NCBI GenBank assembly: GCA_000091205.1
Contig: AP006492.2
Direction: 5' to 3' (one strand)
Origin: Cyanidioschyzon merolae
Taxonomy: Eukaryota
DNA: 64,000 nucleotides
The notes below the pieces were generated by a model. That model saw nothing but the letters and a program-made list of their open reading frames with translations. It did no database searches and was not told the DNA's origin. The position numbers and the translations under genes are program-made. Shown here piece after piece: positions 300 to 50,150 of this stretch (position 1 is the first letter of the stretch; each line of letters starts with the position of its first letter).

Positions 300-1610
300 A
301 CTTCAATATGCAGTGTACTCTATAGATCGTAGAAGAATTGCTTGTAGGATACACATTCTTTCCTGAAGAGTTCCAGGAGAACTCGAATTCTCCTTCGGAT
401 GAGTCTTAACACAGTACACAGATGCGTGATTCACACGGAAAGAAAGAATCAGATGCGCTCCGCTCCAGAAACCGATATTTTCAGAGACTTTTTGAGGTCA
501 CTGGTAGAGAACAACTGATTGATCGCTATAGAGAAAACCCGAGCGGCGAGCATGGACACCACGGGAGTCTCTGTTTCTCAACAGCTCGTTCCCGGGATCC
601 TGAAAACACTGGGATACAGTCGGAAAAATGAATCCTATTTCAAGCACGGCCGTCTTGCACGGAAATCGCAACGGTAGCATTCCTGGAAAGCCGCTATCCG
701 GAGAAAGCACCGGAACGTCGGTTTGTTTTTCAGTCGATGACACTTGCTTCGGATGAAACGGTCAGAACGTATATTGGTAATCGCGGAGACAGAGCATGTT
801 ATCTGTACGAGTGAGCTCGAAGAGAACAAAGATATCATCATCGATTCTAGCTAGAGTGGATACACTCGGCGGCGTCAGTCGCGCTCGTGGAGCAGGCTCG
901 CTCGACAGCACCCATTGGCCTAATAATTGAATACTTTTCACCTGAGGTCTGGTGACGTCCTTCTATTGAACAACGTAGCATTTCGCCATCCACTTGCGGT
1001 TGGGATTCTGCCGATTCGATCAAGGGTTAGAGTAGCTTTCCATTCCTGCGCACACTCCATGTTTCAACCCTATTGCATGAGTGTTTTCTATTGTGAATCC
1101 TATTGATCGCTTCAGTGGGCAAATCGCAAAATCGCTCTGTACAGGGTGACACTCTGGCACATGGTGTCTTTCATCCGCATTGACCATCTCCTCCGGCAAG
1201 GCCCTCATATAAGGGTATATAGAAGCGCGTTCATTTCCAAAAAAAAAATAAGGAATGAGCCGCAGTGCGCACTTCAGTAGGCCGAGATGGAGCGCCGGCA
1301 GCCAAGCGCATCGGTAATAGAGAAGCACGCAGAGCTGACAGAGCCCCAAATGGTACTAATGGCACGAGTTCGAGGAATCGGTGTACTGATGAGTTCCATT
1401 AGAGGCAATGCACGCATGGAATTCATAAACCGAGGCGTCAACGCCGCCACCAACATCAGGAGATGTTCAGCGCTCCAGACGAGACCTGCGGAGCATTCGC
1501 GAGCGAACGTTATCGTGATGCTTCTCAGGCTCCAAGTTTGCATGGAGAAACTGTAACCGATAGCAGGGAGCCGGTAAAAAAGGCTGAAAGGCGTCTGGGC
1601 ATACCTATTA
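300..1610 (+). mobile_element. Copy A of a ~1.3 kb repeat family encoding a degraded TnpB/Fanzor-like RuvC nuclease remnant (approximate ends)
   Basis: ORF 1287..1556 ends in ...EFINRGVNAATNIRRC..., which matches the RuvC-III R-D-x-N-A-A-x-N-I motif of TnpB/Fanzor. ORF 422..631 (...LCFSTARSRDPENTGIQSEK) and flanking DNA (cccagtgttttcagg at ~590 in reverse complement; tatagatcgtaga at ~330) match copies at 31.5-32.8 kb and 48.8-50.2 kb in inverted orientation. The reading frame is broken by stops. Confidence 0.45.
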
Positions 1611-2809
1611 ATTTCCATTAGATGCTCGTGAAACGTTGTCGCTCCATCGGGCATATTCCAAGATAGATACTTTTTACTCATACGTTTGATATCAGGGCCA
1701 GGGGTCGTTTACACAGCGGTGCGACGTTCATCTGCAAGACGATATACGTCGATGCTCGCAAAGTGCTTCAGAAAGCGCTGCACAAAAGCGCATAGCGAGT
1801 CTGAACGTTGACGATGAAGTCGTCAGCGGCACCTGTCCGCAAAGGCCACGACACCCAAGTAACATGGACGACAAAACGCTTCAGGAGCCAGCCATCTGCA
1901 AAAATCTCTGTTCCTCGAACGTCTCCTGAGTGCTCTGCCCGACAGCAGAACAGGCGACAACCAGTACCCTGATGGGATTCATTGCGGAAACATAGGTACA
2001 TTGTCGCCGCCAAGGCATTCTGAGGTGCAATGAGCGAGGTGCGTTGTCTGACAAGCGTTTGCAAGACAAAAGTTGTGCATGCGAACGCCTCGAATGCTAC
2101 CGTCTACGTGCCCGCCTCATTCGAAGACTCGGCATACGCTAGTCGCAACGTGTCCAATACGGTACACGCACCGCGTTTATCATGTTGGCACTGCCGCTGT
2201 CCCGAAGCTGTCGTCTCGAACGAGGCGTCTGTAGTGATTCCTCGTGGTACGCGGCACCCGTCTGCATACGCGTAGCAGCTGCTGGCGCAATCCATGGGCA
2301 CTCGAAGTGGATTCCCTCCAAAAGATGCAGGATATCACGATCATGCACCGTACTAGACGTATGGGCATCGGGAAGTGCTGTATCTACGGCCGAAGCGGCA
2401 CTGTACGAGACCGTAACACCATGAGCACAGGTTCTGGGAGGAATACTCGTCCGGAATCTATGCAAATTCGGAGGTGCAGTGCAATGAAACTCCAAAGATT
2501 TTCAGATCTTTATGCGTTGCTCGGGACGCCTGCGCTTCACTAGATCCCGGCTTTCGGGGCGTTAACGCGCCATCAGTTTTCTCGGTCCACGATGCATCAA
2601 GCGTCTCTCGACGACAGCAGACTACAGCGTGATCCAGGCCCGCGCACAGACTGCGGGGCAAGAGCAGCTCTGTTCCAGAGTTGCTAGGCTGAAAACACGC
2701 ACCACCAGGCGCGAGAGCACGAACTACGTTTTTCCATTAGAGCCCACCGCATCCGAACGAATATACGTCGCCATTACTAGTGCATACTGCTCGCAAAATG
2801 CAGATGGTG

Positions 2810-3946
2810 CTAAGGCGATTCCGCACTTCGCATTGCAAGCTTGTACTGTGCATGCCGCAGCTGTCGGACAACAGGGGCGCGGGCGCACCACATAGCTCCG
2901 TATGATGGAATTTTCACGCTGGGATCCGAGCTGAACCGGTGCGGATGCGGCGTCTGGTCGTCGCCAAGTGGCTGACACAAAAAGCCACGCACGACGAGGT
3001 ACGGTACCACTTCACGATACACTGGTGTATAACTATTCACCTCGAGTACGAGATGGTCGACCTTTTGGAGCCACCGCTGTCCAAGCGAGCGTAACGCATT
3101 CATATCATGGCCTTCGACGTCGATCTTCATGAAGAATATACCCTGGATGCGTTCGCCGCTCTGGCGCTGCCAACGATCCAGTAGTGTGTCAAGGCGAATG
3201 CTCTCCACTGATATAGACTGAACGGTGTCCTCAGAGTCATCCGCAGACTTAATATGTGCCATGCCAATGTTGCCCTCGTAGCGAGCGTAATGCACGTCCT
3301 TGCTTGGCTTTTCATCGATGGCATACTGGTGGATAGTCAGACGCTGAGCAATGGCAGTATTGAGGCGCGCGGAAAGGGCGACAGTAGCGGCGACATCTGG
3401 TTGCATCTCAAAGCTGTGCACCCGATGACCGAGCGCTGCCGCGAAGAGCGCAAACGATCCATAGTTCATACCGACGTCCATGACAATCTTGCCACGGCCG
3501 GCGGTCGGCTTCGATAGCCGTCGAACCAACGTAAAGACATTGTGCACGAACTCTCGGTCCCAGAAACCCCCATTACTCAGCATGCTGTCGCAAACGAGAT
3601 CAGGAGTCACGCACAGGAATGTATACGGATTGGGACGCTCTGTTGCGGGGAGCTCGGTGTCGTTTTCGGGCACATATCGGCCGAGCCGGTACTGCGACCA
3701 GCGCTCATTCGGTAAGCCCAAGAGGTACTTGAACGATTGCGTCTCCGAGTTGCTGATAATATTTCTGATCGCACGCGCGTCTACATACTCAGAGAGACGA
3801 TCTCTCGAGCTCGCCGTCAGCTGAGACGCTGGGAAGACCGCAAGCAGAAATACAACGGAGAACAAAACAAAAAACGAAAGCGCCTGGCGGTGCCACCTGC
3901 TGCGGTTCTTGCGGTAAGTTCGAAGCAAGATTTCCAAAATATTCAT
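2810..3946 (-). CDS. FkbM-family (Methyltransf_21) methyltransferase with N-terminal signal-anchor, probable type II membrane protein
   Basis: 378-aa ORF with an ATG start confirmed at 3944-3946. N-terminal hydrophobic segment FFVLFSVVFLLAVF. Core motifs KIVMDVGMNYGSFALFAAALGHRVHSFEMQP and FMKIDVEGHDMNAL match the FkbM methyltransferase signature (vDvGAniG ... AfEP ... KiDvEG). Confidence 0.65.
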   Translation of the reverse strand: MNILEILLRTYRKNRSRWHRQALSFFVLFSVVFLLAVFPASQLTASSRDRLSEYVDARAIRNIISNSETQSFKYLLGLPNERWSQYRLGRYVPENDTELPATERPNPYTFLCVTPDLVCDSMLSNGGFWDREFVHNVFTLVRRLSKPTAGRGKIVMDVGMNYGSFALFAAALGHRVHSFEMQPDVAATVALSARLNTAIAQRLTIHQYAIDEKPSKDVHYARYEGNIGMAHIKSADDSEDTVQSISVESIRLDTLLDRWQRQSGERIQGIFFMKIDVEGHDMNALRSLGQRWLQKVDHLVLEVNSYTPVYREVVPYLVVRGFLCQPLGDDQTPHPHRFSSDPSVKIPSYGAMWCARAPVVRQLRHAQYKLAMRSAESP

Positions 3947-4086
3947 GCCTGCGCACGAAAAGTGCCGAAGAAGTACAAAATGTTGACTCCGAAAAACGTC
4001 AATCCAAAAGTTGCAACGTGAGCATGCTCAGAGCTCCGCTGTGCGATGCAACGCAGCACTGCCGCCCGGTGCATGCGTTCCAGTCC

Positions 4087-4395
4087 GTGCGGTAAAATCG
4101 ATGCGGTAAGCAACATATTATGAGACACGAGTGGACAGTAATGGATCGATTGCCTTGCATGCCGTGCGGTAAGATTGATGCGGTAAGTATCCAATTATGG
4201 GACAAGAATGGTCAATAATCGATCGATCATGATGCATGTCGTGCGGTAAGCTTGATGCGGTAAGTATCCTATTATGAGACACTAGTGAACGACCATCCAT
4301 AGATTGCCTTGCATGTCGTGCGGTAGGAACGATGTGGTTAGCATCATATTATGAGACAATCATGATCAATAATCGATCGATCACCTCGCACGCTA
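4087..4395. repeat. Tandem repeat, 4 copies of a ~77-bp unit (gtgcggtaaNNtNgatgcggtaagNNNc.attatgagaca...)
   Basis: Units begin at 4087, 4164, 4241 and 4318, each with the gtgcggta(a/g)g core. They lie 140-450 bp upstream of the FkbM methyltransferase start on the minus strand. Confidence 0.85.
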
Positions 4396-5575
4396 ACAAG
4401 AGCACACTTCTCACAGACACGCACATCCCGCAGCTGGCAACTATACAGTAACACCAAAGCGATACTGGATTTGCATATCGCTACAGACGCGTACCGATAC
4501 CTGTCTTGGACTCAAAAGGATAATGTATTCTTGAGCAGAAGCGGATTCAATGGGAATCAATCCTGTTTCCGTACCAGGATGCCCTCTGCGCTGTACGAGC
4601 GCCTCGAAAGCATGTTCCCGCGGCGCAGAAGCGCGCCTGCGCAAGGCGATCAACGAGGGCGAGGTTGTCCAGTGGCCACCAGCTGTCGCGAAATTCAGCA
4701 CGCGTCCACGCGACTGTGTGGATCACGTGCCCGACTTCGTGCGTCGTGGCATTCCTGGTAATGCATCTGTGCTTGATACCATGCGCGTACATACATGAAA
4801 GTGCTTCATCTCGACGTTGCACCCAGAGCACGGGAGCCTGTGTCCTTGGCGCAGCACGGACCGGAGACGCAACCGTTCCAGGCGCCTCGTTGTCACAGAT
4901 GCAGCTCGAGCGCACGCGTCGGCTCATGCATGCGCAATGGAGAGCATCTCGAATACGTGCAAACGGCATACCAGCAACGAATTAAGATGCAACGGGTGCG
5001 CGGAAACTCGGCAACTGCAACGAGGGCGCCTTGCGCATGGATACAGTCGCACGGGGTGCGCTCCTGGAAATGGTATCCTAGAGCGCGCACCGTGCATTGC
5101 CAGCGTTGCCTAAACTCAACGTTTTCAGAGCAATTACTCCCTAGCTGCATGCAGCTACCAGCATGCCTCTTCGGAACACCGGCCTCTGCTCGACATCGCA
5201 TCATTTACCTCGGTGGTACCAGTTCAAAGTTCTCGGGCGGTGTTGCTCAAGAACGACTGCCGCCGGAAGTCCACGCTGCTGCAAGATTCGTGACCGTTCC
5301 TCTGTAGATGCTCTGAAAGAACGGGCGCGTCATCATAGAACATTCAAAATCATGCCAGTATCGCCAAATGGACGCCAAACCGCCTACCAGTACTGGGGAC
5401 GCATTGGAGCACCAGAGGCTTGATCAGCCCCGGACGTGTACGTCAACATCGCGCTGACGTGAGCATCGCATACCTGGGTGGACGCAAAACGCCCGGATCG
5501 TGGTGACCATGTCTCCAGATAAACCGATGCGACTTCAAGTCCGCAGCCTAAATACGCGATTCATGATGCATACGA

Positions 5576-6412
5576 TTAAACAATACGCTCCAGACCGCGT
5601 ATATACTCCATGGTGCGACTGACGGCTTCTTTCGCCAGCAGATATTGTGATGGTGCTTCCCTAATGTGATCTGAAGCGATGAAATGCACAGTCTCGTTTT
5701 GAACGACGTACTGCGTACAATCAAGCACACGTGCCAGCAGAGCGGGCACCTGTTCGACCGGCAAAGCTGCCATGCTCGCCAATTCTTCAAGCGTGACATG
5801 CGCATAGGCCTCCGCCCAACTCGTCACCATCTCCTGGATTGTCGTCTCCCGCAGAAGCTCGATAAAAGGCAACCACTCCGCACCTGCCTCAATGTGGAGG
5901 ATTTTCTGATAGCTGCCTTCCGTAAGCGCCTGCTCCACCTGAAAAGGAAAAAGCACGTATGGGTTCTGTTGCGGCTCTGTGGTAGGCAGCAGCTCCAACT
6001 CCATATGGTACTCTGCCAACCTGTTTTGTGCCAAGAGTCGCATCAGATTGAGTCCAACTAGGAGGTCGCGATGTGGCGACTGAATACCGGCTTGCCTGTC
6101 CAGCTCGTAGAGTGGCATTAGCTGCTGGATGTGACGCTCCATTGCCGCCCAGTCGCGTTCCATGACGGCGAGTCGCACACATAGTTCGTGAAACGTGCGC
6201 TCTGCCAGATGATCACCAACTCGGCGAAGCACCAGCTCTCTCTTTAGACTCGTGACCAGGTGATCGGCCTGCTGCTTCTCGGGCCCGCTGAGCGTACCAC
6301 GCTCCACCAAAACCTGCAAATCATGCAGGCTCGTAGTCACCGAAGCTGCTGCTGCTGCTGCTGCAGGTGAATCTGAGCCCGGCACGCCGTCCGTCATCGA
6401 TTCTGGTCTCAT
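5576..6412 (-). CDS. RPN12: 26S proteasome lid subunit Rpn12/PSMD8-like PCI-domain protein
   Basis: 278-aa ORF, ATG start confirmed. LMRLLAQNRLAEYHMELELLP, LTEGSYQKI and the C-terminal LLAKEAVSRTMEYIRGLERIV parallel recalled human PSMD8 (LLLLSQNRVAEFHTELERLP, LMEGSYNKV, ELAKQVIEYARQLEMIV). Contains a poly-Ala run from a (GCT)n tract at ~6335-6360. Confidence 0.65.
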   Translation of the reverse strand: MRPESMTDGVPGSDSPAAAAAAASVTTSLHDLQVLVERGTLSGPEKQQADHLVTSLKRELVLRRVGDHLAERTFHELCVRLAVMERDWAAMERHIQQLMPLYELDRQAGIQSPHRDLLVGLNLMRLLAQNRLAEYHMELELLPTTEPQQNPYVLFPFQVEQALTEGSYQKILHIEAGAEWLPFIELLRETTIQEMVTSWAEAYAHVTLEELASMAALPVEQVPALLARVLDCTQYVVQNETVHFIASDHIREAPSQYLLAKEAVSRTMEYIRGLERIV

Positions 6413-7355
6413 GCCGTCAGCCTAGTGTGGTACAAGCGAATGAGCAGCAAAAGAGAAACAGGGATGCGAACGTATTTTCGAAACGCGCGCGTTCGCTAGC
6501 ACTTGGAGTACAGCCCACAGTTCTCCGATCTCGCTGTCTGGTAACACTGTTGTCCTTGCCGCGCCGGCGATGCGTGCGCTCCCTGCCTTGGGTCCGTCGA
6601 GAAGCGTACCAGTTGCGCACTTCTCTCGCTTACGCACCGTAGATGCGCTGCGCGTTGTAACAAAATGAGACGCGCCAGCCACAACGACTTGTTCTGCACC
6701 AAGAGTCTCTGAAACGCTGTGCAGCCCAGACCTAAACGACACCGGTTTTGGGCTCGCTCGCACTTGCGTTTACCTGCGTTTGCGTTTCGTCAACACCACC
6801 GCGAACGCAGAGCGTTTCAGCGACGGGAGCCGCGGCTCTGGTGTCGCGCGTTCCATGCAAGGGTGCATATGGGCGCTTTCTGTTTCCCGTGCATATCGAC
6901 CTGTGCAACACGTACAGTGTCCCATCGTAATGCAATGAATGTCTTGAATCATGTTGAATTGTCTGCTACATTGAAGCAGAGGGTGTTTCAGGATGGAGTC
7001 TCTTGAAAAATAAACCTATCCATATAGGGAACAAATTGTCCTCACGTGTCGCAACGAGTGACTTGCGCCACATGTACACAGCGTCCTATCGTCATGTAAC
7101 GAATATCTTGCAGAATGTCAATTAGTACGTTACATTGAAGCACCAGATTTTTAAAGGCTGAGCATCCCTGAAAAAAAATACGTACTTATTTTGCAAAACA
7201 AGCAGAGTACACTCCCGCAACTACCAACTTGCGCGATACCAGCGCTCAAGAAACAAGCACGATCGTACTCGCAGGGACGTTTTCTGTTCTGTTTGTGTGC
7301 CGTGCAACTTTACAACGAAAAAAGCCACTGGTTCACAGCCATCAAACTGTGCCGT

Positions 7356-28306: not shown

Positions 28307-28337
<31 letters not shown>

Positions 28338-30742: not shown

Positions 30743-31273
30743 TCATCGCGAGTCGTCCGTTTCGGTACCCCATACACGATAGGGTCGCTTCTGCAGCGCG
30801 GAATTGTAGTATCGTTCGTCGAGTGTGACCTCGTCCGCCAACCAGGTCGGCCGCTCAAACGCCGTCTCGGGGGTTGGCAGCTCGATCTCCGCGAGGATAA
30901 GAGGAGCATTATCACCCAAGAACTCATCGATCTCCCAAACAAGGCCAGCTTCCTTTGCCGGTATTCGATAGCGCACTTTTTCGATAAGTGGCTGTACACA
31001 GAGTGTGTTCAACAACTCTCGAGCGTCCTCGACTGGGATCGGGTACTCGTACTCGGCCCGCGTGCAACCGTGGGTGCGTCCCTTGATCGTCAAGAAGCCG
31101 CTCATGCCAGCAACACGGACGCGTACGGTGCGGTCGGGTTCACTGCACAGGTAGCCTTGCGCGAGATGTGTGCCCTGCGAAGTGCACAACAGCCGACGAA
31201 CTTGGTCAGCGTGCACCAGAAACTTGCGCTCAGTCTCGCGGTTCGCTGCGCGGTTCACCCCACCGTGTTGCAT
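30743..31273 (-). CDS. CYTH-domain protein (triphosphate tunnel metalloenzyme; bacterial CyaB / thiamine-triphosphatase-like)
   Basis: 176 aa from the ATG at 31271-31273. N-terminal ETERKFLV (the EIERKFLV-type start of CYTH proteins), ...GYL...VRVRV...GFLTIKG...EYEYPIPVEDA...IEKVRYRI...WEIDEFLGDN..LILAEIELP, a typical CYTH layout. The track ORF extends upstream to 31435 without homology. Confidence 0.55.
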   Translation of the reverse strand: MQHGGVNRAANRETERKFLVHADQVRRLLCTSQGTHLAQGYLCSEPDRTVRVRVAGMSGFLTIKGRTHGCTRAEYEYPIPVEDARELLNTLCVQPLIEKVRYRIPAKEAGLVWEIDEFLGDNAPLILAEIELPTPETAFERPTWLADEVTLDERYYNSALQKRPYRVWGTETDDSR

Positions 31274-31479
31274 TCGCGGAGCACTGGATCCTAAAAGCAC
31301 CGAGATTTTCGAATCTAGCTTTAGAGTGTGAACTCGAGGAGGAGGAGACCACCTGAACGTGGTGCGCCCAAGAAACGGCCGTGCAGCAGGCACGAAGAGC
31401 ATCATCAACGTCGTTCGAAAGTCGAACGACGTCAACGGTGTACAGTAGTGGCGAGTGACCCGCCCTAGTCAGAACGTCT

Positions 31480-32750
31480 CCAACTGACGCGCAGAAGCCC
31501 CACAGTCCTTCACAACCGGCCACCTACTACTGCGTCCAACTTTCTCTCAAATAATTCCACTTTGAGAGATTGTCCAATAAAGTTCATTCTTGTCGAGTCT
31601 GGAGGTCTCGTCTGCAGCACCGCACATTTCCTTCTATGGATAGCGGCATTCAAGTCTCGCTTCACAAACTCCGTACGTTTGTTGCCCCCGTTGTTTGTAC
31701 TTACTAATGCAACAGGCCCTCGAACTCGCGCCCTTCTTTCGATTTGCTGCTCAGTCACCTCTTCGTGCTTTTCTACCGCCGATGCGCTCTGCAGCCTGCT
31801 GCCCATCTCGACCTTCTGAAGTGTGCATCCCAGCTGATCCCTTATGTTTTCAAATTAACGCAAAGCTTTATGCGGTTAGGTGAGAACAGTCCCCGAGGGA
31901 GTCGGACCTGCGCAGGAAAGACAAAACGTGCCACCGGTTTGTATCCGTGTGCTGGAAGCCGCATTGATTCGCCCAGTGGATCGATCATTCCGTTGCACGA
32001 TAGAAAACACACCTTCAATGGGGTTGAACCACCCTGTGTTCTAAGGAATGAAAACCAGCTCTATCCAGACAGAATCGCCAAAAGATCGAAAACGAAGGAT
32101 AACGGTGAAACGCCACGTTGTCTCATAAAAGCTTGCCGCCGGACGTCAGAGAAAAGTCTTCTATGACTCGACAAAGTGGTTGGTGCTATTCTATGACCCT
32201 TGTCCTCGAGTTCGATCGTACACACAACGAGCTCACTGCTCCACGAATACCGATATACGCTCATACCATCTCGTCCGAAGCATGTCTCATTTACTGAAAA
32301 GACACACAGTCGTCCCCTTGCTAACATCGATCGTCACTTTCCGGGAACATTGGTGTAGTTGCGATTCCAGTCGAAGATGGCGGTACGCAAACAAGGACTT
32401 TTCTGGCAATTGTGTCCCAGTGTTTTCGGGGCCACTCGAACAAGCTGCTGAGAAACAGCGACGAGCGTGGCGGTTACTATCGTCGCTTTTTGCTGTCCGT
32501 AAGGCGATCAACGAATCGTTGTCTACCATTGACAGCAAGCGTTTCTCCGAAAATGGGTTTTGGCGTGGTGCGCATATACGCCCTGCCTTCATTGTTCTGA
32601 ACCATCAGAGCACTGTGATATAGCTGACCTCAAAGATGAATGCAGTCCTCCTTGCACTGTTCAGTAAAGAATATATCCCATAGGCCATTCGTCTACGATC
32701 TATACGGTACATTGCATCGAAGTTTCGTTCTCTCGCTATACATTGCGAAA
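31480..32750 (-). mobile_element. Copy B of the TnpB/Fanzor-like repeat family; retains recognisable RuvC-I/II/III-like motifs but is interrupted by stops
   Basis: Minus-strand ORFs: 32287..32592 with LLSMVDNDSLIALRTA (RuvC-I-like, compare GIDLGxxxLAT); 32061..32327 with LVVCTIELEDKGHR (RuvC-II-like, vvIEDL); 31510..31806 with EFVKRDLNAAIHRRKC (RuvC-III RDxNAAxNI). The DNA is homologous to copies A and D (for example gaggtctcgtctgcagcaccgcacat, and cccagtgttttcgggg at ~32410). Confidence 0.5.
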
Positions 32751-33832
32751 AAAGCATTCGAATACTATGAGCGGGAATCGAGCAGCGACTCGTTCAGTGA
32801 CTATCCACCCAGCTGCGCGAGCCGCTCTGCCACGAGTTGCGTTTGACGTACAAAGATCGAAAACTTGAAGAATACATGTTTTGGGCATGCAACATAGAAG
32901 CAATTAAGAAGAGCGTATGCTTGCGCGTATACACTACATCATGGCATGCGTTCTGTGTCGAACTCTTGTTCGATAACGTTGCGACGCGACCCCTTTCCGA
33001 ATACGGAACCGATTCAACCGAAAAATTCGTCACAGGAGCCGCCCTCAAAAAACAACCAAAAAACCTTAAACTACAGTGGAATCTATAAGCCCCTGTTGCC
33101 GTACTTGTCTTGTCGTGACTCTGTATCTTTCAAGTAAAAGAAAATCTTTATGCAGGCACGAAGCGAGCAGTGTACTCCACGGTGACCGCTACACACAAGC
33201 GCAGCGGCAGCGTCTGCGCCACATCGCCCGTGAACGCACGTGCGACGATCACATCCCCGGATGCGTATCGAGCGAACAACCCAGGAACAGCGCGATCGCG
33301 CGAGCGCACCGCACACACACACGCTGGAGGGCGGGATGCGCACCCCTGCCCGGCACCACGAAGACGCAATCGCGGCTTGCGCGAGGCAGGCGGCGTCGCG
33401 CCATTGACTCGATACGCTGGGCTAGATCCCCGCGCGCGCGCGCGCGCTGTCACGGGGATCGTGATCACGCGCAGTCGATGCGTGCGATCGCATCGCACCG
33501 CACGTGCCGGCTGCCTGCTTCTATGCGCGTACGCGCTCGGAGCTGCAGATCAGCCGACACATGCGATCACATCGTGTGCGTGATGCTGACGCGAACGCGA
33601 GGCAGACTCCAGCGTCGGTACACGTCGGTGCAAAGAACAGTGCCCGCAAATGTTACCGCACGGAATTTCCGTGCTGGCGCTCGCGGGAGCACGGCATCGT
33701 ATTCGTCCCGTAAGAAAACAAATTAGTTGACTTGACTTTGGGTTGTAACCGGTTACTGCACTCTGAGCAGGAAACCCTCTGAAAGTCTGGTTCCCAAGTC
33801 ACAAGTACCTGCAACCGTAAGCAACACCAGTC

Positions 33833-36901: not shown

Positions 36902-37510
36902 CTATGATCCGCAGTTTGGATCGCAGGATGAATGGTTAGCGTGATCCGCAGTTTGGATCGCAGGATGAATGGTTAGCGTGATCCGCTGTCTAGGCCTCCG
37001 CAGCGGTGCCAGCGCCCAGGGCGGCATCACTTCCGCCGTGCCTGTAATCGTCAGTGAAACTATCGGTACCCCAGCTTGCTTTGCGACCCGAAACGGGCGC
37101 TGTTTGAAAGCACGGAGCATCCCGTCTTTCGAGCGCGTGCCCTCCGGAAAAAGCAACAGCGACACCCCGCGTTCCAGTCGCGAAACCATTTCTCGAAAGA
37201 CCCGCAGTTGATCCCGTCGACTATCCCGCTCAATCCCGATTTGACGAGCCATGCCCACCGCCCAGCCGATACTAGGGATCGCAAAAATGCTTCTTTTGGA
37301 GACAAACTTGAAAAACCGGCCTAGAAACGACACCGTGTAGATGTCCAGGTACGAATTGTGATTGCACACATAAAGCACAGTGGCATCAGGCGGAAGCAGA
37401 TTCTCCGTACCAACGGCACGCTGATGAATACCAGTGCTCAGCATGGACAGTCGCATGCAGAGCATCGCGATCCAGTCGTAAGCGCGCGCTCGGTATGGAT
37501 CACGGATCAT
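36902..37510 (-). CDS. PlsC-like 1-acyl-sn-glycerol-3-phosphate acyltransferase (LPAAT); probably disrupted, with a 5' end abutting a transposon relic and a 3' end frameshifted by a 37-bp duplication
   Basis: 202 aa. Acyltransferase motif I VCNHNSYLDI (NHxxxxD), motif III FPEGTRS, and IVSLTITG. No N-terminal membrane anchor is present. Its ATG (37508-37510) overlaps the stop of the repeat-family ORF 37507..37908. Confidence 0.6.
   Translation of the reverse strand: MIRDPYRARAYDWIAMLCMRLSMLSTGIHQRAVGTENLLPPDATVLYVCNHNSYLDIYTVSFLGRFFKFVSKRSIFAIPSIGWAVGMARQIGIERDSRRDQLRVFREMVSRLERGVSLLLFPEGTRSKDGMLRAFKQRPFRVAKQAGVPIVSLTITGTAEVMPPWALAPLRRPRQRITLTIHPAIQTADHANHSSCDPNCGS
36906..36979. repeat. Perfect 37-bp tandem duplication (gatccgcagtttggatcgcaggatgaatggttagcgt x2) followed by a diverged partial third copy
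   Basis: Units at 36906-36942 and 36943-36979 are identical. Removing one unit restores a longer frame, ...TADHSVTDLIEAARTAIASALPPGLRRR-stop (ending ~36832), in place of the present ...TADHANHSSCDPNCGS-stop. Confidence 0.9.
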
Positions 37511-39000
37511 TCCATACGTTTCTTGCCGTTGGGAGTTGTACTCACTAATGCAAGGAGTCCATGAACTTTCGCCCTCCTTTCCATTTGCTCCTCCGTCAGC
37601 GGTCCGTACTGTGCTATATCCTCAGGACTCCGTTGGCATTTTTCCATCTCCACTCTCTGAAGTGTGCAACCAAGTTCATGGTGTGTATACGACGCTCGGA
37701 ACTCATCTACAGGTATTGTAACGAAACGCCGTGCGCACTCCCTGCATGTTCTTGTCGTTGGAGCTGGCGTAGTTCCTTTTTGGGTCTTCCAGCGCCCTGC
37801 CCCAAAAGCTACTACGAGCCTTAGACTCTCGTCCTCCTCCAAGGCGCTCAAGTGATTGGAAAAGATCGCGAATGCACGCTGCTTCCCACAGTACAAATTC
37901 ATTCGCAAACGAGCTCACCGAGGCTCGGTATACTCCTCCCACAGCGCATCCCAATGAGCAACGCGAACTTCCATGAATTCCCGAAAAGCTTCAAAGTCCG
38001 CGCCCTGGCTCGTCACCTCGCTCATAGCTTCCAGGTGATCCCTCATTCCTGCATTCCACGTCTCGATATTTTTCCTCGCATTCGTTATACGGGATTCTCG
38101 ATAGTATCTCGCTCTCGAGAACCTCAAAAGAAGCATATATTTCTGACGTATGTTGCCGTCGGTGCAATCTTCCGCACGCTTGGGTACAGCGATGGATATG
38201 ATATTCTTGTTCCAGGGGTTAAGGCCGACGACAAAGTCGTTCTCGTGGGGATTATACATCCAGTGGCCCGCCTTCTTGTTTCCGTGCTTCGGCAAGTGCG
38301 ATAACGTACACGGGATAGGACGAACTGCCTGCAACCGCTGATAGTCTACACATATGTATACCCCATCGTTGTCGATTGTCCCCGTGAATACCTTTTTTTC
38401 GCCGGTCTGGGACGCTTGAAATCGAAGATATTCTGCCAGTAGGAGTCCCGGTCTTCGCCGATGATTTCTTTGTTGCTCACACCGAGCGCTGGACTGATCT
38501 CCTTCATGAAGACGGAGAGGACTCTAGAGTCAATAGTAACAAAATGTGACTTGGACTCGCGTAAGCGAACGACAATGAAGCGCATCTGGAGAAGCGATTG
38601 AATGTCATCTCTCCAACGCTTCATTTTTTCCGTACTCAGCTCCATTTCGGCCTTGCGTTCGAGTTCTCGGTCCAAAAACATGAAGTAGGAGAGAATAAGG
38701 GGATAACATCTCTCTTCGTTTTTTCTCATATCTGACAATTTTTCTCTTGGGTTGACAAGCCCCAAGACCGAACGATGCTTTTGATGAGTCGCGCGAATTA
38801 CAGAAGCCCTATTTTTTCTAGAGCGTGATTTCCCCTTGTCGATGAATTCGATCTGCTGTTCATGCTGGCGATCGTCCTTCACACCGTCGATGACTGCCCA
38901 CATCCCTTCACGAAACAGGCCCGGGTACAGCGCAAAGACGGCGCGTGTCATGAAAAATTTGGGTATACGATCTTATTGTTCCTCACATTCGTGAGGAACC
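37507..39000 (-). mobile_element. Copy C (more diverged) of the TnpB/Fanzor-like family: a pseudogenised nuclease ORF broken into three or more pieces, with a terminal hairpin
   Basis: ORF 37507..37908 (...LVVAFGAGRWKTQKG..RFVTIPVDEFRASYTHHELGCTLQ...EEQMERRAKVHGLLALVSTTPNGKKRME) aligns at protein level with the C-terminal fragments in copies A and B (EKHAELTEPQMVLMARVRGIGVLMSS.. / EKHEEVTEQQIERRARVRGPVALVST..) and stops just before the RuvC-III motif. ORF 37915..38334 has FVVGLNPWNKNIISIAV (a degenerate GIDPG..N RuvC-I). ORF 38346..38951 continues upstream. A 9-bp-stem hairpin gttcctcac-attc-gtgaggaac sits at 38979-39000. GC content is lower than the surroundings. Confidence 0.4.
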
Positions 39001-41217
39001 TCATTGCCCTGTATTCGTAGGTATCTGCGTCACCCCTGTATCGCGCACCGTAGAAGCGGGAGCTTGCGTAATTTTTCGGAGAGCATGGACTGTCTCATTT
39101 CTCCTCGATGTTTCGCAGGTGCCAAACATCAACTGGCTGACAAAGGTCATGTTGAAAACTTCTCCCGGAAACATCACTGTTTCGATGTGCATTGCGTTGC
39201 GGTATATCTCCCTCCGCAAATGCATCAGTCCCGAAAAAAGCGTTACAAACATAGCTTGAGCACGAATCGCCATCGTTTCTGAAGGCCTGTCGCAACGTTT
39301 CCTTGTATGGATCCTTAATATGCCCAAGAAGACAGAATTTCATCACCATTTCATCGATCAGTCGTCTTTCTTGCAACCTTTGACGAAGGGCCTCCCGTTT
39401 TTGCTTCTTCGCGTTAGCCTGTTCCTCTGCACTCGGCACTGTCCTTTGTTCTCTTCCGGCGGCCGGCAATACCGGTCATCCAGAACCCCATACCTCCAGT
39501 TGCATAAGTTTCGGTTTTTATATAAAACACTAGGGACGCTTCTGCTTTAAACGACGACAAATCAGTTAAATACTTTACCTTGAAGGTTGAAACACGATTG
39601 AAGTAAAACCTACACTTTGCTATCATTTGATCGCAAATACAACTGGCCCCGACACAGCTGTAGGCCAAAAAGTGGCCATTATCGCGTTTCTCTTCGCCGG
39701 CGAGACAGGTTGCGTGTTGTGACGGCCAGATATCGTGGTGCGCGTACGGGCCATATAATACAAAAAAAGAACGGAGTGTGGCCAATTACTTGCAACGAGG
39801 TAACGGTTCCTTTTCACATCTATTGCAGACCTTGAAAAGAGGAACCTTTTGCTCATGGTCTAACGATTACCTTCGAGGTGGAAGGTCCCACACACCGGAA
39901 GACGCTACCTGCTTTTGCTCCGCGTGACTCTGAGTGGTGGAGAATGTGACGCACCTGAGCGTCTCGTCCGAATCGCGTTTGGTTCTGGGACTAGGAGCGG
40001 ATGTGCTGCCTATGGGCGTCACCTTGGTCGCGGTGGACTCCTAGGATACCGCTTCGCGGTACCGCAGGCTGAAGGTCTGCATGTACAGCTTGGAGGCTCC
40101 CAGAAATGTAAATAGCCCTGATTCCGTTTCGCGTGAACCAAGCCTCTTCCGACGCCCTCAGTGGTATTGCGAAGCCGTTCTGTCACCGTGGTGCATTAGC
40201 ACCAGCGGTGTAGGTGCTATTCCGGGTGCTCAAGGAAGGTTAGGTGCACCGTTGAACGTGCGAAACAAGCAGTTCATTCGAGAGAAAGTAGGGGTGATGG
40301 AACGTGGAGAAAGAGTGCAGCATGAGGACGCATTCCCGAAAGCCAATATCGATCAGGCAATCTGGGATATATGGTCAGTGGAGACGTTCTGTCGAACCAA
40401 AGAAAGCATAGCGCCGGAGGGAATTCCCTAATGGCTCTGGTGTTCGACGCATCGCCTTGGCAGATGCATATGCGCTGAAATCATCCCGCAGGAGGAAATT
40501 CCCTTATACTTCCGCTGGGCCGGTGCCCGCGGGCGGCAAACGTAGCACTTGCGCGTTTCCACTGCATGATTGACACGCAGTTACCGCCGTGGAGAGGCAC
40601 ACGTTAAGCTCGTTTGGAGCAACTGACCAGCTGCAGTCATATATACGTATCTCATCAACGGAGCGTCTTCAGAGACGTGAGCAAAGACGCGCAGGTCGTT
40701 TTGCGCTAAGCTTTAGAGGCTCGTGCGCGGTCTAAGATAGACGTCGACGCGCCGGTGTTGAGGAGAACGAAAACAGCGCCCTTGTGTGTGTAGTTGTCTG
40801 TCGAAAGACGAACAACTTCACTCCAGTAGAGCGTAAACGGGCGCCCCGGAGTCACGGATTTTGAAACTTGAGAAAACACTGGTGCGAAAGCACTCGTCTT
40901 TTCCACGGACTACACGCGTCACGGCGAGAGCGGGGCTCGTTGCTCATCAGTCGCGGCCGGGACGATTCTGAACCACGGAGACGTGAGTGCTACAGCCCAG
41001 TACACTGGATCAAGCGTTGAATGCACGTGCTCCTGGGGATATTGATAACGGCGCTTCTGATCGCCGCTGCGTTCTGGGTCGCATTGTCGATGGTGCGTCT
41101 GGAACGGCGCCTTGCGGAGCACGAGCAGCAGGCAACACAACGTTTATTGGAACCGCGTAAACCTGGTGAGCGCAGCGTGCGCGCGGAAACGAGCACTGCG
41201 CTCTCGTAGCAATACAT

Positions 41218-42582: not shown

Positions 42583-43022
42583 CGTGTCCGCGCGCATGCG
42601 TGCGATCGAAGGTGCGGCCTCCAGCTACCATTCGCTGCCAATAACTATCTGTAAATGTATATACTGGTATATACATGTATATAAATATACGTCCTTGTAC
42701 GAATGGAATCCTCTACGCACGAGACAGGGTCCGTGTCCGCGATGCACGCTTCGGGGCTTGGACGGTGTATCGAGTGCAAGGCGAACACAGTGGGCACTTG
42801 CTGTGCACATACACATGCGTCGCCGTTCTTGCGCTTTCAGAAACATAAGCCAAGGATAGATACAGTTGTGCAGATGCTGGGTGCAAGAGGCGCCGCAGCA
42901 GGTCACGCTCTGATACCACGCTTGAGCTGTGCATAGCAACCCATCTTTACAGCGCAATGACGGTGGACACGTCTCGGTATCGCGTGCGCTTCGCGCTCGC
43001 TACCGCGCTAGGTCCAAGCATC

Positions 43023-46000: not shown

Positions 46001-46790
46001 GCGAACAGTTTGGCGACTCTACCAGCGCATCGATCGCTTTTTCGCTTGTGCGTCTATGCGACTGCCGTTTCGAGCGTTGCCGTTGACCATGATGCCCGGC
46101 GCTCGACACGTTTCGCCCGTCAGCGGTTTGGTGTTGCATGAGCTTCGTAAAGTACCGTAGAATACGACCATCTGCAGCACCAAGGACGATGCCAGCAAGG
46201 AATTGCAGCACTTTGCGTCCGTTTGGCGAATTGCATGCATCTGTTGCAGAACAGCACAACGTGAGCACATCTTGGGGTATGCGCGTCACAAGCTGCGCAC
46301 AAACACTCACAGCCGCCAGCTCGAGGTCACTCTCCGTGTGCTCCCTCGCCTCGGTCGGGTCATCGCAGCTGGCCGCTGTCTGCGACACGGGGCCAGCGCC
46401 GAGCGCCACAGGCCACGGCACACGATCAGCGCGCCGGGTTCGAGATTTGAGTTCGTATAGTTTAAATGCTTCATAGCGTGAGCGCAGGCGCCAATTGCGA
46501 GCACTGAGGCTGAGGAATCCGAGAGCGAACTCGCCACTCGGAGCTCGTTCTGCAGAGGATTGCTCGTGTCGGCGCGTGAACTCCTCAGCAAGCAGCACTG
46601 CGACTCGGGTGGCCTCAGACGGCTTCAACGATAAGATTTTCAGGTTCTCGAGGAGCGCGCACAACTGTGAAGCCAGAGAGCTGTCCACATCCTCGGCCGC
46701 GGTGCCCGCTGTACGAAGGCGCTCCAGCGTGGTGACCAGGCGTGCTGTCAGCGCTGGGGAACTCCTCGAGGCAAAAGCCTCTGAATTCAT
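43023..46790 (-). CDS. TBC-domain Rab GTPase-activating protein, large (>1250 aa), with extensive low-complexity regions
   Basis: TBC catalytic motifs: Arg finger LDIIDRDVTRTF (IxxDxxR) and Gln finger VGYCQGMSSITGAL (YxQ), followed by ITPMMFADKWYLTALLYNFPFPLVSRVWDALLLDG. The track ORF runs to 47027 but begins on GTG; the first ATG is at 46788-46790. An upstream exon is possible. Confidence 0.75.
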   Translation of the reverse strand: MNSEAFASRSSPALTARLVTTLERLRTAGTAAEDVDSSLASQLCALLENLKILSLKPSEATRVAVLLAEEFTRRHEQSSAERAPSGEFALGFLSLSARNWRLRSRYEAFKLYELKSRTRRADRVPWPVALGAGPVSQTAASCDDPTEAREHTESDLELAAVSVCAQLVTRIPQDVLTLCCSATDACNSPNGRKVLQFLAGIVLGAADGRILRYFTKLMQHQTADGRNVSSAGHHGQRQRSKRQSHRRTSEKAIDALVESPNCSPVTPGATDDDVGSEQSWDSHDAEGFIDPSLATDPNEAEFWDAFEYARVLAAANRSDASSCLRTASQRVVRLAEGNTDGRIEEAATPVQFPTAPESPLASAPRYLYTKPYRHSVLLPAEDSSTTIPEPSANIHAACQVRHPSMALSRCPIMSDADEQALILSDFPYHAAAYAFLHVLESCAAVSRPNPESMAATAADPLYLAFSTSLVLPAFAFVLRNDIMDRSSFCMRFPPLIMKKAFDTIRATNEPRFGALHRLWRQAGLGAFLAVAARRYSELGEIPLSMLATDAACVLAGKWEDCFGFLVTNRPESQLLDDDPLVQTPEQHAAGRRRSSSRGTQSERRASLRMRARRLDWRSRRPWRPFAAGLEGRDATAAAPEASTAIEDALQLAERLESSESARQQTEASARTGAAASDAAGPDTPTAATTSAPRNTKDQLTATLDSASIEAAPARLLRRTSSRHSHSLSGAEPAGEAARAPRPGATPIDEKASVVPAAPETLDTESVGPGRRLCCASMFAHTQRIPSEPPSTWLELLRAWRRFNESDEPRCPPELFRRTQRLVRRCGIPDRLRKYFWPLFLEVERRRGRSPPNWYRTLLRKATAAPDSSRADTTGSRGGAAASTMPAPGSGPVPREVLDIIDRDVTRTFCNHRLFWRGGAALGLGALRNILRAYACLDPAVGYCQGMSSITGALYIYAGGSEERCFFMLVQFMQGALQFREFFLPGFTRLCQSVEAFAWLLHRKLPRTARLLEAKGITPMMFADKWYLTALLYNFPFPLVSRVWDALLLDGHVKVLHRATLTLLKRAEHAGRLSPEIPFEDLLMYLQRGFATDKAVIPSIGVFMNDVWHSVSFSRRQLHPLEQAPETATGTRMQHCAPTGRRMLLFARFRQRMEAFRNAQKRKQQAHREAAMPRKTQARTEEEGSLRQVLAESVAAEQIASLHRTDSAITSLDSFYTEKGGWKRDPPPVCTERYRRRGMLFTLGHRMLPCVFPGDG

Positions 46791-47028
46791 CAGCGACCCG
46801 CCCGTTACAGCGTAGCTTGTCCACAGCTCCGCACGCGGCCAGGAAACCGACCTAGTTGAGGACTGTAGTGAGCCCCGCTGACACGCTTTGAAAACGCCCA
46901 GCAAAGCTAAGCGCTCGTGGGTGCGCTTCTGAGCCCTACCGCCCTGAATCCTGGTTCCCAGTGAGCACAAAGGTGCACCCGAGTCGCTCACGAGCAACAC
47001 CGGTTCGACTGTCACCAGACGAAACACC

Positions 47029-47046
47029 TGTGTGTGTGTGTGTGTG
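47029..47046. repeat. (TG)9 microsatellite
   Basis: tgtgtgtgtgtgtgtgtg, immediately 5' of the TBC-gene ORF. Confidence 0.9.
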
Positions 47047-48839
47047 CTGCAGTCAAAAGCACGTCCAGCTCGGTGCGGTGAAATCTGTCGCTCCGGGACA
47101 AGTGTTGCGCTAGATTGGCCCGCTTGTGAGCGAAACGGCCAGTCGTCAATCGCGCAGATTGTCCACTATGGGTGTCAATGGGCAGTTACGTGGCGCGGTG
47201 CTGTCGAAGCCGAGACGCGATTATCTGGCGGTGCCAAACATAGCTCCTATGTCCGTTAGGATCATATAGTTCCATAAATGCACTTTCCGCGATGCGCTTG
47301 GATCATGGACGTGCCTCCGGGGCGGGGGCGTATCGCGCGTTCGCGCTGGTGCCCCTCGAGCGCTGGTTCCGTTCTGCGGTACGCAGCGAGGCATCTGAAC
47401 GCGAGTCCGATCGATGCGGAACTCGGACACGTTCGCTCTGTTCCCGCGACTTGGTTTGTTCTCCGAAAATTTTCTAGATGCATAGTCCTGAAATTTGATG
47501 CGCAGCGAAAATCTATTATGGACTCATATGCAGTTCTCAGATGCTCGAACGTATTTTCGGATTAGGTTCTGTTGACGTTCTGCGACTGCTGGCAAGCGAT
47601 GCGTGACCGGAATCGAGATGATTCGCGGCGCACTCGAGCAAGGATTCATGAAATAGCTAATATTGCTGTGCAATGCATACGTTTTGGCGTTTACCTCTCT
47701 CCCTTTCTTACGTTTAACATGCGCACTTCGCACATTCATCGACGTTTGGATCTTTCTCTTTCAAGGCCAGTCGCGGGCGCAACGAAGCGCGGCCATGGAT
47801 TGACGCAGACAGCTACTGAAAATCGTCTGTAAACGACTTGCTCTCCAGCTCATCAAGAGAATTTGCAGAATGTGTCATGTCCAATAGCAATCTCCATTCG
47901 AAACACATACCTTCATTTGGTACAGGTTATCTGCAACACCGCATTTGGCAGCTGCATGATGGCTCTCACGAGATACGCTTCAAGAGGTTCGCGTCGCTTT
48001 TCTTTGTATGCAAAGGAGTGCTGCGCTCGAAATTTGGACATCGCAACGATGCTCTTCGGTAAACAGACCGTCACCGATATGTTGGAATGAAGTACCGACA
48101 GACTGAAATTTTATGGTTTGTTCCCTAGGCTGTTTGTTCCTTCCAGCACTTGTTTCATCCTGGAGAACATTGTGTTTTACGAATCCTCTATTGAATGAAA
48201 CAGCAAGCAGTCGCTTGTGCAAGTCGCAGAGACAACGCAGATACCTGCTGCATGCGCGGAAACATTGCAAGGCATTGCATGGCGCCACGTGCACCAGTCA
48301 AAGGCACGTATCGACCGATCATAGGAGCGTTCACGAGCCACCGGGTGCTGGTCAGATGAGCGGAGGGTTTCGCGGAAATGCGGGAACACCCGCACACAGT
48401 CAAGCCACCGCTGCGAAGACGCACCGATGCAGTATACAAAGATAGAGAGAATGACAAACGAAGCATAGATAGGGGCGGGTGACTCTGCATGAAATGCGTT
48501 GACCACAAGCGGAAGCAGCTCAGTGGGGACGTTAACGCTGCCATCAAGATTCCGCCAATGCTGATAGCGGAACTGGTGGGAATGCAGTTACCAACGTATT
48601 CGAATATGGAGACTCGTATGCGAAAAACAAGGTACAGTGGCAGCGGAACCCTGCAAACACCAGTATTGGTGCTAGAGCGCAGAAACAAAACCTATATTGT
48701 GTACGCCCGACTCTGCGAACCTGCTCTATGTTAACCGAACACGGCAGTATCCAGAATCCCTGAATGCGCTGCTGCGGTATGCAAGCCAATGAAACAGAAA
48801 ATGTCCAACGAGTTTCTAGGGTAAATGAATGACTACCCG

Positions 48840-50150
48840 CTGACGCCTTCCAGCCTTTTTCGACCGGCCGCCTGCTGTCAGCTTCAGTTTATCCAGGTAT
48901 ACACTGAGCTCGAGAGGCCGACCGAAAAACCTGCATCGCGTCAGTTTCAGAGGTCTCGTCTTCAGCACCGCACATCATCTGATACTGATTGCACCTTTCA
49001 AAGTCTCGGTTCATGAGCTCCTTGCGTTTTTACTGCCGCCGGCAGAATTCACCAGCGCAAGGACTCGTCGAACTCGTGCCCTCGGTGCCATTTCCCGCCC
49101 TGCCAGCTCTCTGTGCTTTTCTGTCGCCAAAACGGTCCGCTGGCTTCTCTCCATCTCGAACTTCAAAAGTGTACACCCTGGTTCATTCCTTATTCATGAA
49201 AATGAATGCACCCCTTTAAGCACTCGGGTGAGGAATTTCGCAGCAGGAGAGGCACTCGCGGAAGACAGACAAAATGTGCCCTGGCGTCACCGTGTCTTGA
49301 ACGCCTCGGCGATTCGTACAATGGACCGATCAACGCGTTTCACCATAGAAACCACTCCTCTTTATAGCGTTGAATCTCGGAGAGGACGGAAGAGTGAAAA
49401 GCAGCTGCACCCCGATAGAATCCGGAAAAGCCCAAACGCAAAGTGAATGCTGAAATACTACGTTGTACAGTAGAAGAACGTCGCCAGAGGTCCGGGGAAA
49501 AGTCTTTAACGAGTCGACAGCATTGCTGCTGTTCTACGAGACTTCTTTACAAGCGAAACTGAGGCCACCAAATGGATCCACTGCTGCTAGAATAGAAGAT
49601 GATAACCTGTATCTCTTCGAGTTCGGTCATAGACACAACGGGCTCCCTCTCTGCAAATACCCATGGACGTTCCGACCGTATCCTCTGAAGCAAGTCTCAT
49701 ACACTGAAAAAAATAATCGACGTTTCTCTGCATCATAGCGATCGCGACGTTTCAGGAACGCTGTCGCTGCGATTTCTGTGGAAGACAGTCGTGCGTGAAC
49801 GCGGACTTTGTTGTGACTGTATCCCAGTGTTTTGAGTACCACGTGAACAAGCTGTTGAGAAACAGAGACACTTGCTGTGTCTACGATCGTTGGTTTTACT
49901 TTCCATATGCTGATCAACGGTTCGTTTTCTATCATTGACGATGAGCAGTCTTTCATAATATTTTTTGCGCAAAGCGCATCTACATGTGCCTTTCAGTAAT
50001 CCTCAACCATCTAAGCACTATGATATGACTCACCTGAACAAGAAATACAGTCCTCCTTGCACAGTTTCGCACAGAATACATCCTAGAGAGATTTCGTCTA
50101 TGATCTGTACGGTACATTGCATTGTGGAGTCGATCGCCTGCTATCCACCA
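48840..50150 (-). mobile_element. Copy D of the TnpB/Fanzor-like repeat family (heavily degraded)
   Basis: DNA homology to copy B over more than 1 kb in the same orientation. Examples: gaggtctcgtcttcagcaccgcacat at 48960, ctcgaacttcaaaagtgtacaccc at ~49155 against B ~31810, cccagtgttttgag at ~49825 against B ~32415, and cagtcctccttgcacagtttcgcac at ~50050 against B ~32640. Minus-strand ORFs 49627..49956 and 49733..49972 carry LLIVNDRKRTVD and KCLCFSTACSRGTQNTGIQ, matching the A and B fragments. Confidence 0.45.

Follow-up and report, generated by a model that had tools for sequence, protein, structure and literature searches.

Decaying relics of two related transposon forms, in all likelihood built around one Fanzor1 gene, in a 64-kb stretch of the Cyanidioschyzon merolae genome

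The stretch of DNA considered here, 64,000 nucleotides (nt) of contig AP006492.2 (assembly GCA_000091205.1) from the cyanidiophycean red alga Cyanidioschyzon merolae, is called the window in what follows. It is eukaryotic, poor in introns, and 55-60% G+C, and its genes include those encoding Rgp1, RabGAP-TBC, CYTH, and acyltransferases. Among these genes lie four segments, copies A through D, derived from Fanzor, the eukaryotic homologue of TnpB; no others of Fanzor origin occur in the window. A preliminary description of this DNA took them for four copies of one repeat of 1.3-1.5 kb. That was correct for copies A, B, and D, which are true dispersed repeats, but copy C is longer and is a different element. 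The same description saw the copies as relics, full of stops, of a eukaryotic TnpB homologue, which is borne out by the matches of copy C to Fanzor1, and it named the flanking genes (PlsC acyltransferase, CYTH, and RabGAP-TBC) correctly. Very probably the four copies derive from two related forms of DNA transposon, both organized around a single Fanzor1 gene, and are decaying neutrally. All four are inactive: their open reading frames (ORFs) are broken and catalytic residues are lost. Coordinates are collected in Table 1.

When the window is compared with itself by blastn, copies A and D match over 1357 nt (68% identity, E = 5e-125), copies B and D over 519 nt (70% identity, E = 4e-56), and copies A and B at 67-68% identity (E = 1e-38), all of which far exceeds the similarity expected by chance in 64 kb. 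The cores of the matches lie at 288-1629 (+) in A, 31602-32717 (-) in B, and 48808-50142 (-) in D. Each of the three units is ~1.4 kb long; they are 63-70% identical to one another, and pairwise identity, about 60-70%, is uniform along their length. Both orientations occur among the units, which are found at 0.2, 32, and 50 kb, and the flanks are unrelated among the three copies. At the DNA level, copy C resembles copy B over only 164 nt. A satellite or tandem repeat was rejected as an explanation, given this dispersal, the protein-coding origin of the copies, and the lack of any tandem array in C.

Copy C had been placed at 37507-39000. Its real extent, from 40393 down to 37511, is about twice as long. 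Over 2916 nt it shares 78.6% identity (blastn, E = 0) with the consensus of CMe-1A taken from Additional file 2 of Bao & Jurka (2013), and by this alignment it belongs to the published CMe-1A Fanzor1 family. That family comprises ~150 copies in Cyanidioschyzon merolae, ~80% identical to a 3169-bp consensus whose first 635 bp constitute a separate repeat, TE-N2_CMe (PMC3627910). CMe-1A encodes a Fanzor1 protein of 734 residues; it is without terminal inverted repeats (TIRs), its target-site duplications (TSDs) are given as undetermined and its class as unknown, and no transposase partner was reported (PMC3627910). The novelty implied by the preliminary description is therefore gone, the family having been described in this organism in 2013. 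Copy C is also 65-85% identical to three metagenome loci (L001-L003).

The CMe-1 protein matches copy C (tblastn) in three high-scoring segment pairs, in frames -1, -3, and -2 and at 45-77% identity, and the coding part of C contains three in-frame stops and no fewer than two frameshifts. Translated in three frames, the minus strand gives a long and near-open reading, with the motifs GLNPWNKN and VDEFRAS and one resembling TDGV. Stitched into a protein of 480 residues, it finds 129 homologues (best E = 4e-192), many of them intact, 580-750 residues long, from JGI metagenomes, and carrying the motifs GADPGNTNIITIA, VDEFRTSYTHHELGC, and EFVNRDFNAAINIR. Homology in C stops after ...GKKRME at 37511, and RuvC-III and the last 264 nt (the whole 3′ end) are gone. 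In this loss, and in being a pseudogene, copy C differs from the CMe-1A consensus, with which it shares the 734-residue Fanzor1 protein (including identical stretches, e.g., VDEFRTSYTHHELGCTLQRVEMEKCQRSPE), the TE-N2-like 5′ module, and the absence of detectable TIRs. A terminal hairpin proposed at 38979-39000 proves to lie inside the reading frame of C (...MRFLTNVRNN...) and to have no palindromic counterpart in the family consensus.

Sequence from the 5′ module of C is found elsewhere in the window. At the two TE-N2_CMe-like fragments of Table 1, the self-comparison finds positions 40129-40308 of the module again at 52386-52568 and 62649-62782. The block 51722-52568 is 88% identical to positions 6516-7365 of L002, the DNA directly upstream of the Fanzor element at that locus, and it holds an ORF of 176 residues (51725-52255, +) matching one of 255 residues in L002 (6832-7599). 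By eye these ORFs resembled a reverse-transcriptase C-terminal zinc finger, a reading that was dropped, as neither has a Pfam domain.

The 5′ kilobase of copies A, B, and D is of another kind. Aligned translations of the three share the transposase-like strings VSVSQQLV..LKTLGYS.KK, FSVDETCF, LLLDNV.FHHS, and P.FNPIE. Their three-copy consensus matches Pfam DDE_3 with E = 2.2e-12, and a consensus of six copies, three of them from metagenomes, matches it with E = 2.2e-14 (54 bits, where the cutoff is 28.6). The six-copy consensus also matches HTH_Tnp_Tc3_2, though below the cutoff of that family (E = 0.002), and over ~90% of its length it shares 37-42% identity with DDE_3/HTH_Tnp_Tc3_2 proteins of ~300 residues (E about 1e-50). 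The consensus shows 28% identity (E = 3e-9) to the transposase of PUl-1, a mariner element of Pythium in which the transposase gene has a Fanzor1 gene as its neighbor. Within the window, the DDE consensus matches copy D at 49935-49360 (tblastn, 64% over 192 residues, E = 3e-70). To judge from these consensuses, about 70% of each of A, B, and D is a relic of a Tc1/mariner-type transposase and not of a RuvC nuclease. It is within this part that two of the supposed RuvC regions lie: the proposed RuvC-I, LLSMVDNDSLIAL (32500-32538), falls in the helix-turn-helix (HTH) region of the transposase, and the proposed RuvC-II, LVVCTIELEDKG (32196-32231), lies in the DDE domain between its first two catalytic Asp residues.

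The RuvC-III-like motif, however, is real, and the segment around it corresponds by homology to the Fanzor1 C-terminus. In A, B, and D, a hidden Markov model (HMM) of the Fanzor family, 622 positions long, aligns only through its final stretch, ~518-622; with the HMMER filters off and six-frame translations as targets, no match was found in the three copies upstream of the last ~90-105 positions. In copy D, RuvC-III is degraded, and a tail specific to composite copies follows nt 3084 of CMe-1A. An alignment of more than 60 copies indicates that B is the sole copy in the window with the family 3′ terminus and terminal hairpin region; A and D share a different 3′ tail with other composite copies. 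The Fanzor fragment is 58-69% conserved in A, B, and D and the transposase part 62-72%, with no extra-conserved stretch. Selective conservation of the Fanzor fragment was considered and rejected, since it is no better kept than the transposase part.

The junction between the two parts points to their origin. After the transposase module, A, B, and D carry ~35 nt of the 5′ untranslated region (UTR) of CMe-1A (nt ~869-903; in copy A at ~1228-1250) and then jump to nt ~2737. In the junction, ...AATAAGGAATGAGC..., CMe-1A ~nt 900 meets ~nt 2737, at an ATG that both places have in common. An undeleted form is found in the metagenome locus L055, where the DDE module (2956-3915) is followed directly by CMe-1A nt 869-3116 (at 3892-6234), i.e., by a full-length Fanzor. 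On the strength of this undeleted form, A, B, and D are taken to be an internal-deletion derivative of a transposase-Fanzor1 chimera. The deletion of ~1.83 kb (CMe-1A nt ~904-2736) begins at the Fanzor start codon and ends shortly after the RuvC-II Glu, and what remains in A, B, and D is the transposase, the Fanzor 5′ UTR, the last ~125 Fanzor codons with RuvC-III, and the 3′ end. In the chimera, the transposase module takes the place of the first ~870 nt of CMe-1A, including the TE-N2-like part. The short form, as in A, B, and D, is contiguous over the same junction in another metagenome locus, L022.

Such arrangements have precedents. Fanzor1 occurs in mariner elements together with their transposase, and both the order of transposase followed by Fanzor1 and chimeric families that share one half have been described for other taxa (PMC3627910). 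PUl-1 of Pythium ultimum and PGv-1 have the same gene order on the same strand as L055 and, allowing for the deletion, as A, B, and D, the difference being that ~1.8 kb of the Fanzor gene is gone from the window copies. A, B, and D are thus of a known kind, a Tc1/mariner element carrying Fanzor1, in the form of a deletion derivative.

The assignment of the nuclease to Fanzor1 rests on a family much wider than the window. A profile search of 1.84 billion representative proteins gave 1333 relatives, typically of 600-700 residues, and the family alignment consists of 37 diverse members, 24-39% identical to an intact relative, P0003. In the numbering of P0003, D484 of RuvC-I and E656 of RuvC-II are invariant in the 37, and D725 of RuvC-III is kept in at least 90% of them, inside an NRDxNAAxNI motif with an invariant R-N-A-N frame. 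A profile of 12 sequences had no match among PDB sequences. A deeper one was needed to reach the Fanzor structures: the 37-member profile matches those of Parasitella parasitica (9cf0, E = 1e-19), Spizellomyces punctatus (8gkh, 2e-12), and Guillardia theta (9cer, 1e-6). A structure-based search with Foldseek, on an AlphaFold2 model of P0003 (predicted local distance difference test, pLDDT, 79; predicted template modeling score 0.77), led to the Fanzor1 fold, with its WED/REC/RuvC/NUC architecture. Fanzor1 structures take the first seven places among the PDB matches (E = 1e-16 to 7e-14; target-normalized template modeling score up to 0.73), with Cas12 and TnpB structures far lower in the list (TnpB 8h1j, E = 0.035).

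Domain databases say little of this family. Pfam has no match to the stitched C protein and only sub-threshold ones to four intact relatives (OB_RRP5_4th, E = 0.12; Cas12f1-like_TNB, E = 0.23); neither OrfB_IS605 nor OrfB_Zn_ribbon matches the C translation or the relatives above threshold; and the precomputed label on the family, PF26935, is only a domain of unknown function (DUF8286). Among the 37 members, Cas12f1-like_TNB matches five (best E = 5e-4). A C4 zinc finger (OrfB_Zn_ribbon) between RuvC-II and RuvC-III is part of the Fanzor1 motif (Bao & Jurka 2013, PMC3627910), but the family consensus has no conserved CxxC...CxxC, and CMe-1 has only THHELGC...EKC. The solved proteins SpuFz1 (8GKH), PpFz (9CF0), and GtFz (9CER) have in common with the cyanidialean family the domain order, the RuvC triad, and a TDGV motif upstream of RuvC-I, and the dEFRTS of the solved proteins corresponds to the RuvC-II motif of copy C. 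They differ from the cyanidialean family in sequence (12-15% identity in structural alignment), in the C4 cysteines, which are not conserved in the latter, and in having been characterized experimentally; the window copies are dead. Homology with the TnpB proteins of prokaryotic IS200/IS605 and IS607 elements is distant and lies in the RuvC core. TnpB has ~400 residues and the Fanzor here, with 734-752 residues on an element of ~3.2 kb, is about twice that size, which disposes of the notion of compact, TnpB-sized elements. The partner differs too, being a DDE_3 transposase and not a TnpA of the Y1 or serine-recombinase type.

A scan of metagenome contigs confirmed 291 loci encoding Fanzor relatives, most of them solo elements of the CMe-1A type; 80 of the 291 were fetched. 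Some of the metagenome ORFs are intact (e.g., P0003, P0007, and P0016, with lengths of 558-752 residues; JGI Ga0078972, Ga0080006, Ga0207433, Ga0123519, and others). The Fanzor genes of L001, L002, L003, L022, and L064 have a variable number of tandem repeats of ~75 nt (e.g., L022 5198-5499), each encoding an acidic/lysine-rich unit, KHEEKKEA..ATQ(E/K)VQDND, directly upstream of RuvC-I. Copy C and the CMe-1 consensus have one such unit each, and in the AlphaFold2 model the zone of the units is disordered (residues 381-470, pLDDT <50).

Fanzor proteins are guided by omegaRNAs, and in SpuFz1 the omegaRNA consists of a 75-nt scaffold after the stop codon and a guide of 14-15 nt (PMC10432273). The corresponding site in the CMe-1A family is a short conserved non-coding stretch. 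In 35 non-redundant copies of the family, codon periodicity extends up to ~nt 3050, is weaker at 3051-3110, and is absent at 3111-3169, where the DNA is non-coding and yet still ~78% conserved. After ...CGCCACTACTGTACAC, the copies close with a G+C-rich hairpin that varies in sequence by subfamily. Single copies fold into hairpins, with z-scores from +1.0 to -3.6, and a scan of the whole window at Rfam gathering thresholds gave no hits. An omegaRNA for the CMe-1A family is plausible.

Putting these pieces together, two forms of element emerge as very probable. The first, represented by copy C, is the solo CMe-1A of ~3.2 kb, made up of the TE-N2-like 5′ module, the ORF of the 734-residue Fanzor1, and a short, presumably structured 3′ end. 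In the second, represented by A, B, and D, a gene for a DDE transposase of ~300 residues came to lie directly upstream of the Fanzor gene, and an internal deletion has removed most of the latter. By the precedent of Tc1/mariner elements, the chimera, when intact, probably moved by cut and paste under its DDE transposase. Fanzor1, with an omegaRNA from the 3′ end of the element, would have cut sites matching the guide from the flank, as in other Fanzor1/TnpB systems, and so favored retention or homing of the element. The derivative without Fanzor could still have spread by means of the transposase it kept, which would account for the same junction at three loci in the window and, in L022, in another genome.

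A number of observations weigh against this reconstruction. TIRs were not found for either form, whether by inverted-repeat scans of A, B, and D or in the aligned ends of 8-11 copies. In eight composite copies, similarity gives out on the left at one shared boundary, ...TCTTTCAACTCAGTTTTG..., which lies ~105 nt before the conserved ATGCAATGTACC. TA directly precedes this boundary in four of the eight; the right end is too loosely defined for comparison. PUl-1, in contrast, has 24-bp TIRs and TA duplications. Since TIRs are lacking and TA is only suggestive, the DDE transposase is no more than a putative mobilizer of these elements, and could itself be a captured or nested passenger. Perhaps TIRs were lost with age, as the copies are only ~67% identical. 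DDE_3 was seen only on frame-stitched consensuses, the frames having been chosen by the analyst, and on no single window copy. The chimera in L055 is itself broken in both genes, and an intact one was not found. The tail of A and D, as opposed to the solo-type end of B, calls for an extra event of recombination or conversion. As to the RNA, RNAalifold gives essentially no consensus structure for the family 3′ ends (-0.16 kcal/mol), and covariation in a projected structure of four hairpins is not significant (80.7% paired against 79.9% in shuffles, 27/500; score 0.121 against 0.112, 49/500).

Some of these points would fit a history in which the chimera never transposed as a unit: a mariner-like element might have landed in or beside a Fanzor copy, and A, B, and D might have arisen from it by segmental duplication, ectopic recombination, or gene conversion. 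The lack of TIRs and clear TSDs, which Bao & Jurka likewise failed to find for CMe-1A, is in keeping with such a history, and the 3′ end of B, different from that of A and D, indicates that recombination between forms does occur. Nonetheless, we consider it improbable. The flanks are unrelated, and similarity ends within a few nucleotides of one left boundary in eight copies from at least two genomes; the internal junction is the same in the window and in L022; and the unit is dispersed over the window in both orientations.

CMe-1A itself may correspond to a Tc1/IS630-type transposon reduced to its passenger, with this DDE transposase as its mobilizer, and the ~430 nt of Fanzor end that were retained may be required in cis, as right end or omegaRNA. 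The idea is a doubtful one. A, B, and D would then be the counterpart, with a transposase in addition, of the "ghost" loci of Spu-1 in Spizellomyces punctatus (Saito et al. 2023), which have lost the Fanzor ORF and kept the right-end/omegaRNA-like region, much as A, B, and D keep the last ~350-400 nt. The ghost loci, however, are ~550 nt long and well conserved, with conserved inverted repeats, whereas A, B, and D carry a transposase gene, have no detected inverted repeats, and show no preferential conservation.

Table 1. Positions of the Fanzor and transposase relics and of related fragments in the window; consensus coordinates refer to CMe-1A.
Feature	Position	Strand	Description
Copy A, 5′ part	227..1245	+	Decayed Tc1/mariner/IS630-type DDE transposase (HTH + DDE_3) with leader of ~100 nt
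Copy A, 3′ part	1255..1640	+	CMe-1A nt 2737-2996 and diverged tail; 68% over 260 nt; HMM 533-621, E = 4e-20
RuvC-III remnant in A	1419-1457	+	EFINRGVNAATNI; catalytic Asp replaced by Gly
Copy B, 3′ part	31430..31838	-	CMe-1A nt 2737-3145; 80.4% over 409 nt, E = 3e-106; Fanzor tail and 3′ terminus
RuvC-III in B	31636-31671	-	EFVKRDLNAAIH
Copy B, 5′ part	31840..32801	-	Decayed DDE transposase; DDE consensus matches 32529-31957 (tblastn)
Copy C	37511..40393	-	3′-truncated, decayed CMe-1A, consensus nt 5-2905 of 3169; 2.88 kb
Fanzor1 pseudogene of C	37510..39505	-	Residues 1-667 of the 734-residue CMe-1 protein
RuvC-II in C	37690..37710	-	VDEFRAS; catalytic Glu kept; matches dEFRTS of solved Fanzor1 proteins
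RuvC-I remnant in C	38203..38226	-	GLNPWNKN, family GADPGNTN; catalytic Asp replaced by Asn
5′ module of copy C	39760..40393	-	TE-N2_CMe-like, first ~635 nt of CMe-1A; colinear from consensus nt 5; inner boundary approximate
Copy D, 3′ part	48808..49186	-	CMe-1A nt 2737-3084; 70% over 352 nt; HMM 518-622, E = 1e-15
Copy D, 5′ part	49190..50183	-	Decayed DDE transposase, least broken of the three; 109-residue ORF at 49627-49956
Solo TE-N2_CMe-like fragment	52374..52658	-	CMe-1A nt 1-282; 75% over 285 nt, E = 2e-50
Second TE-N2_CMe-like fragment	62664..62851	-	CMe-1A nt 64-250; 72% over 191 nt, E = 3e-18

Two of the relics end at neighboring genes. Copy C ends exactly at the start of PlsC, as had been reported: homology stops at 37511 and the PlsC ATG lies at 37510. 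Copy B had been put ~200 bp upstream of CYTH but reaches further, its homology ending at 31430, where the CYTH ORF (30743-31435, -) starts at 31435 and has its first ATGATG at ~31400. The PlsC ORF (36902-37510, -) meets copy C at a junction that reads ...AAACGTATGGA on one side and ATGATCCGTGATCC... on the other. Its best database match is 79% identical and its best named relative, from Cyanidium caldarium, 62%. Compared with homologues of 222-339 residues, the ORF is without the N-terminal hydrophobic/transit segment, and at the other end its final ~17 residues bear no relation to the conserved C-terminus. The loss of the N-terminus, together with the exact junction, suggests that one deletion took both the 3′ end of the element and the 5′ end of PlsC, which may now be a pseudogene or be read from a new start. 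At the other site, the terminal hairpin of B, CGTCGTTCGACTTTCGAACGACG, runs straight into the CYTH ORF, with ATGATG ~5 nt after the hairpin, in GTTGATGATGC. Since GTTGATGATGC follows the hairpin in other copies as well (e.g., L037), the CYTH start codon may be derived from the element.

One might suppose from this proximity to the start codons of co-oriented genes that relics C and B have been co-opted as promoters or 5′ UTRs of PlsC and CYTH, and the coincidence of the element ends with the two gene starts is what the idea has in its favor. In a compact genome, however, abutting genes are to be expected, the PlsC ORF looks damaged at both ends, and A, B, and D have no extra conservation anywhere along their length, so that co-option seems very improbable. 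The original model, in which all four copies represent one compact Fanzor/TnpB element of ~1.3-1.5 kb with RuvC-I, -II, and -III in order in a single ORF, accounts for the RuvC-III-like motif in A and B and for the homology of all four copies in that segment, but it is scarcely credible in view of the blank Fanzor HMM upstream of the last ~100 residues of A, B, and D, the DDE_3 relic that contains the proposed RuvC-I and -II, and the length of both the real Fanzor protein and copy C, which spans 2.9 kb.

The window also contains tandem arrays unrelated to the Fanzor relics, at 55988-56557, 4086-4383, 62224-62439, and 53613-53758, with periods of 114, 77, 72, and 73 nt, respectively. Some of them sit in long ORFs (e.g., 55752-56576).

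The annotation of this region is corrected, in that most of each of three "Fanzor" repeats is a transposase relic. For biology at large this carries little weight: the copies are dead, the family was catalogued in 2013, and ~150 copies per genome had already been reported. The metagenome copies, and not the relics in the window, are the candidates for active nucleases and the material for tests of activity. What the relics contribute is a connection, as the chimeras, in at least two genomes, link the cyanidialean Fanzor1 family to a DDE_3 transposase. If confirmed on young copies, that link would say how elements of the CMe-1A type moved.

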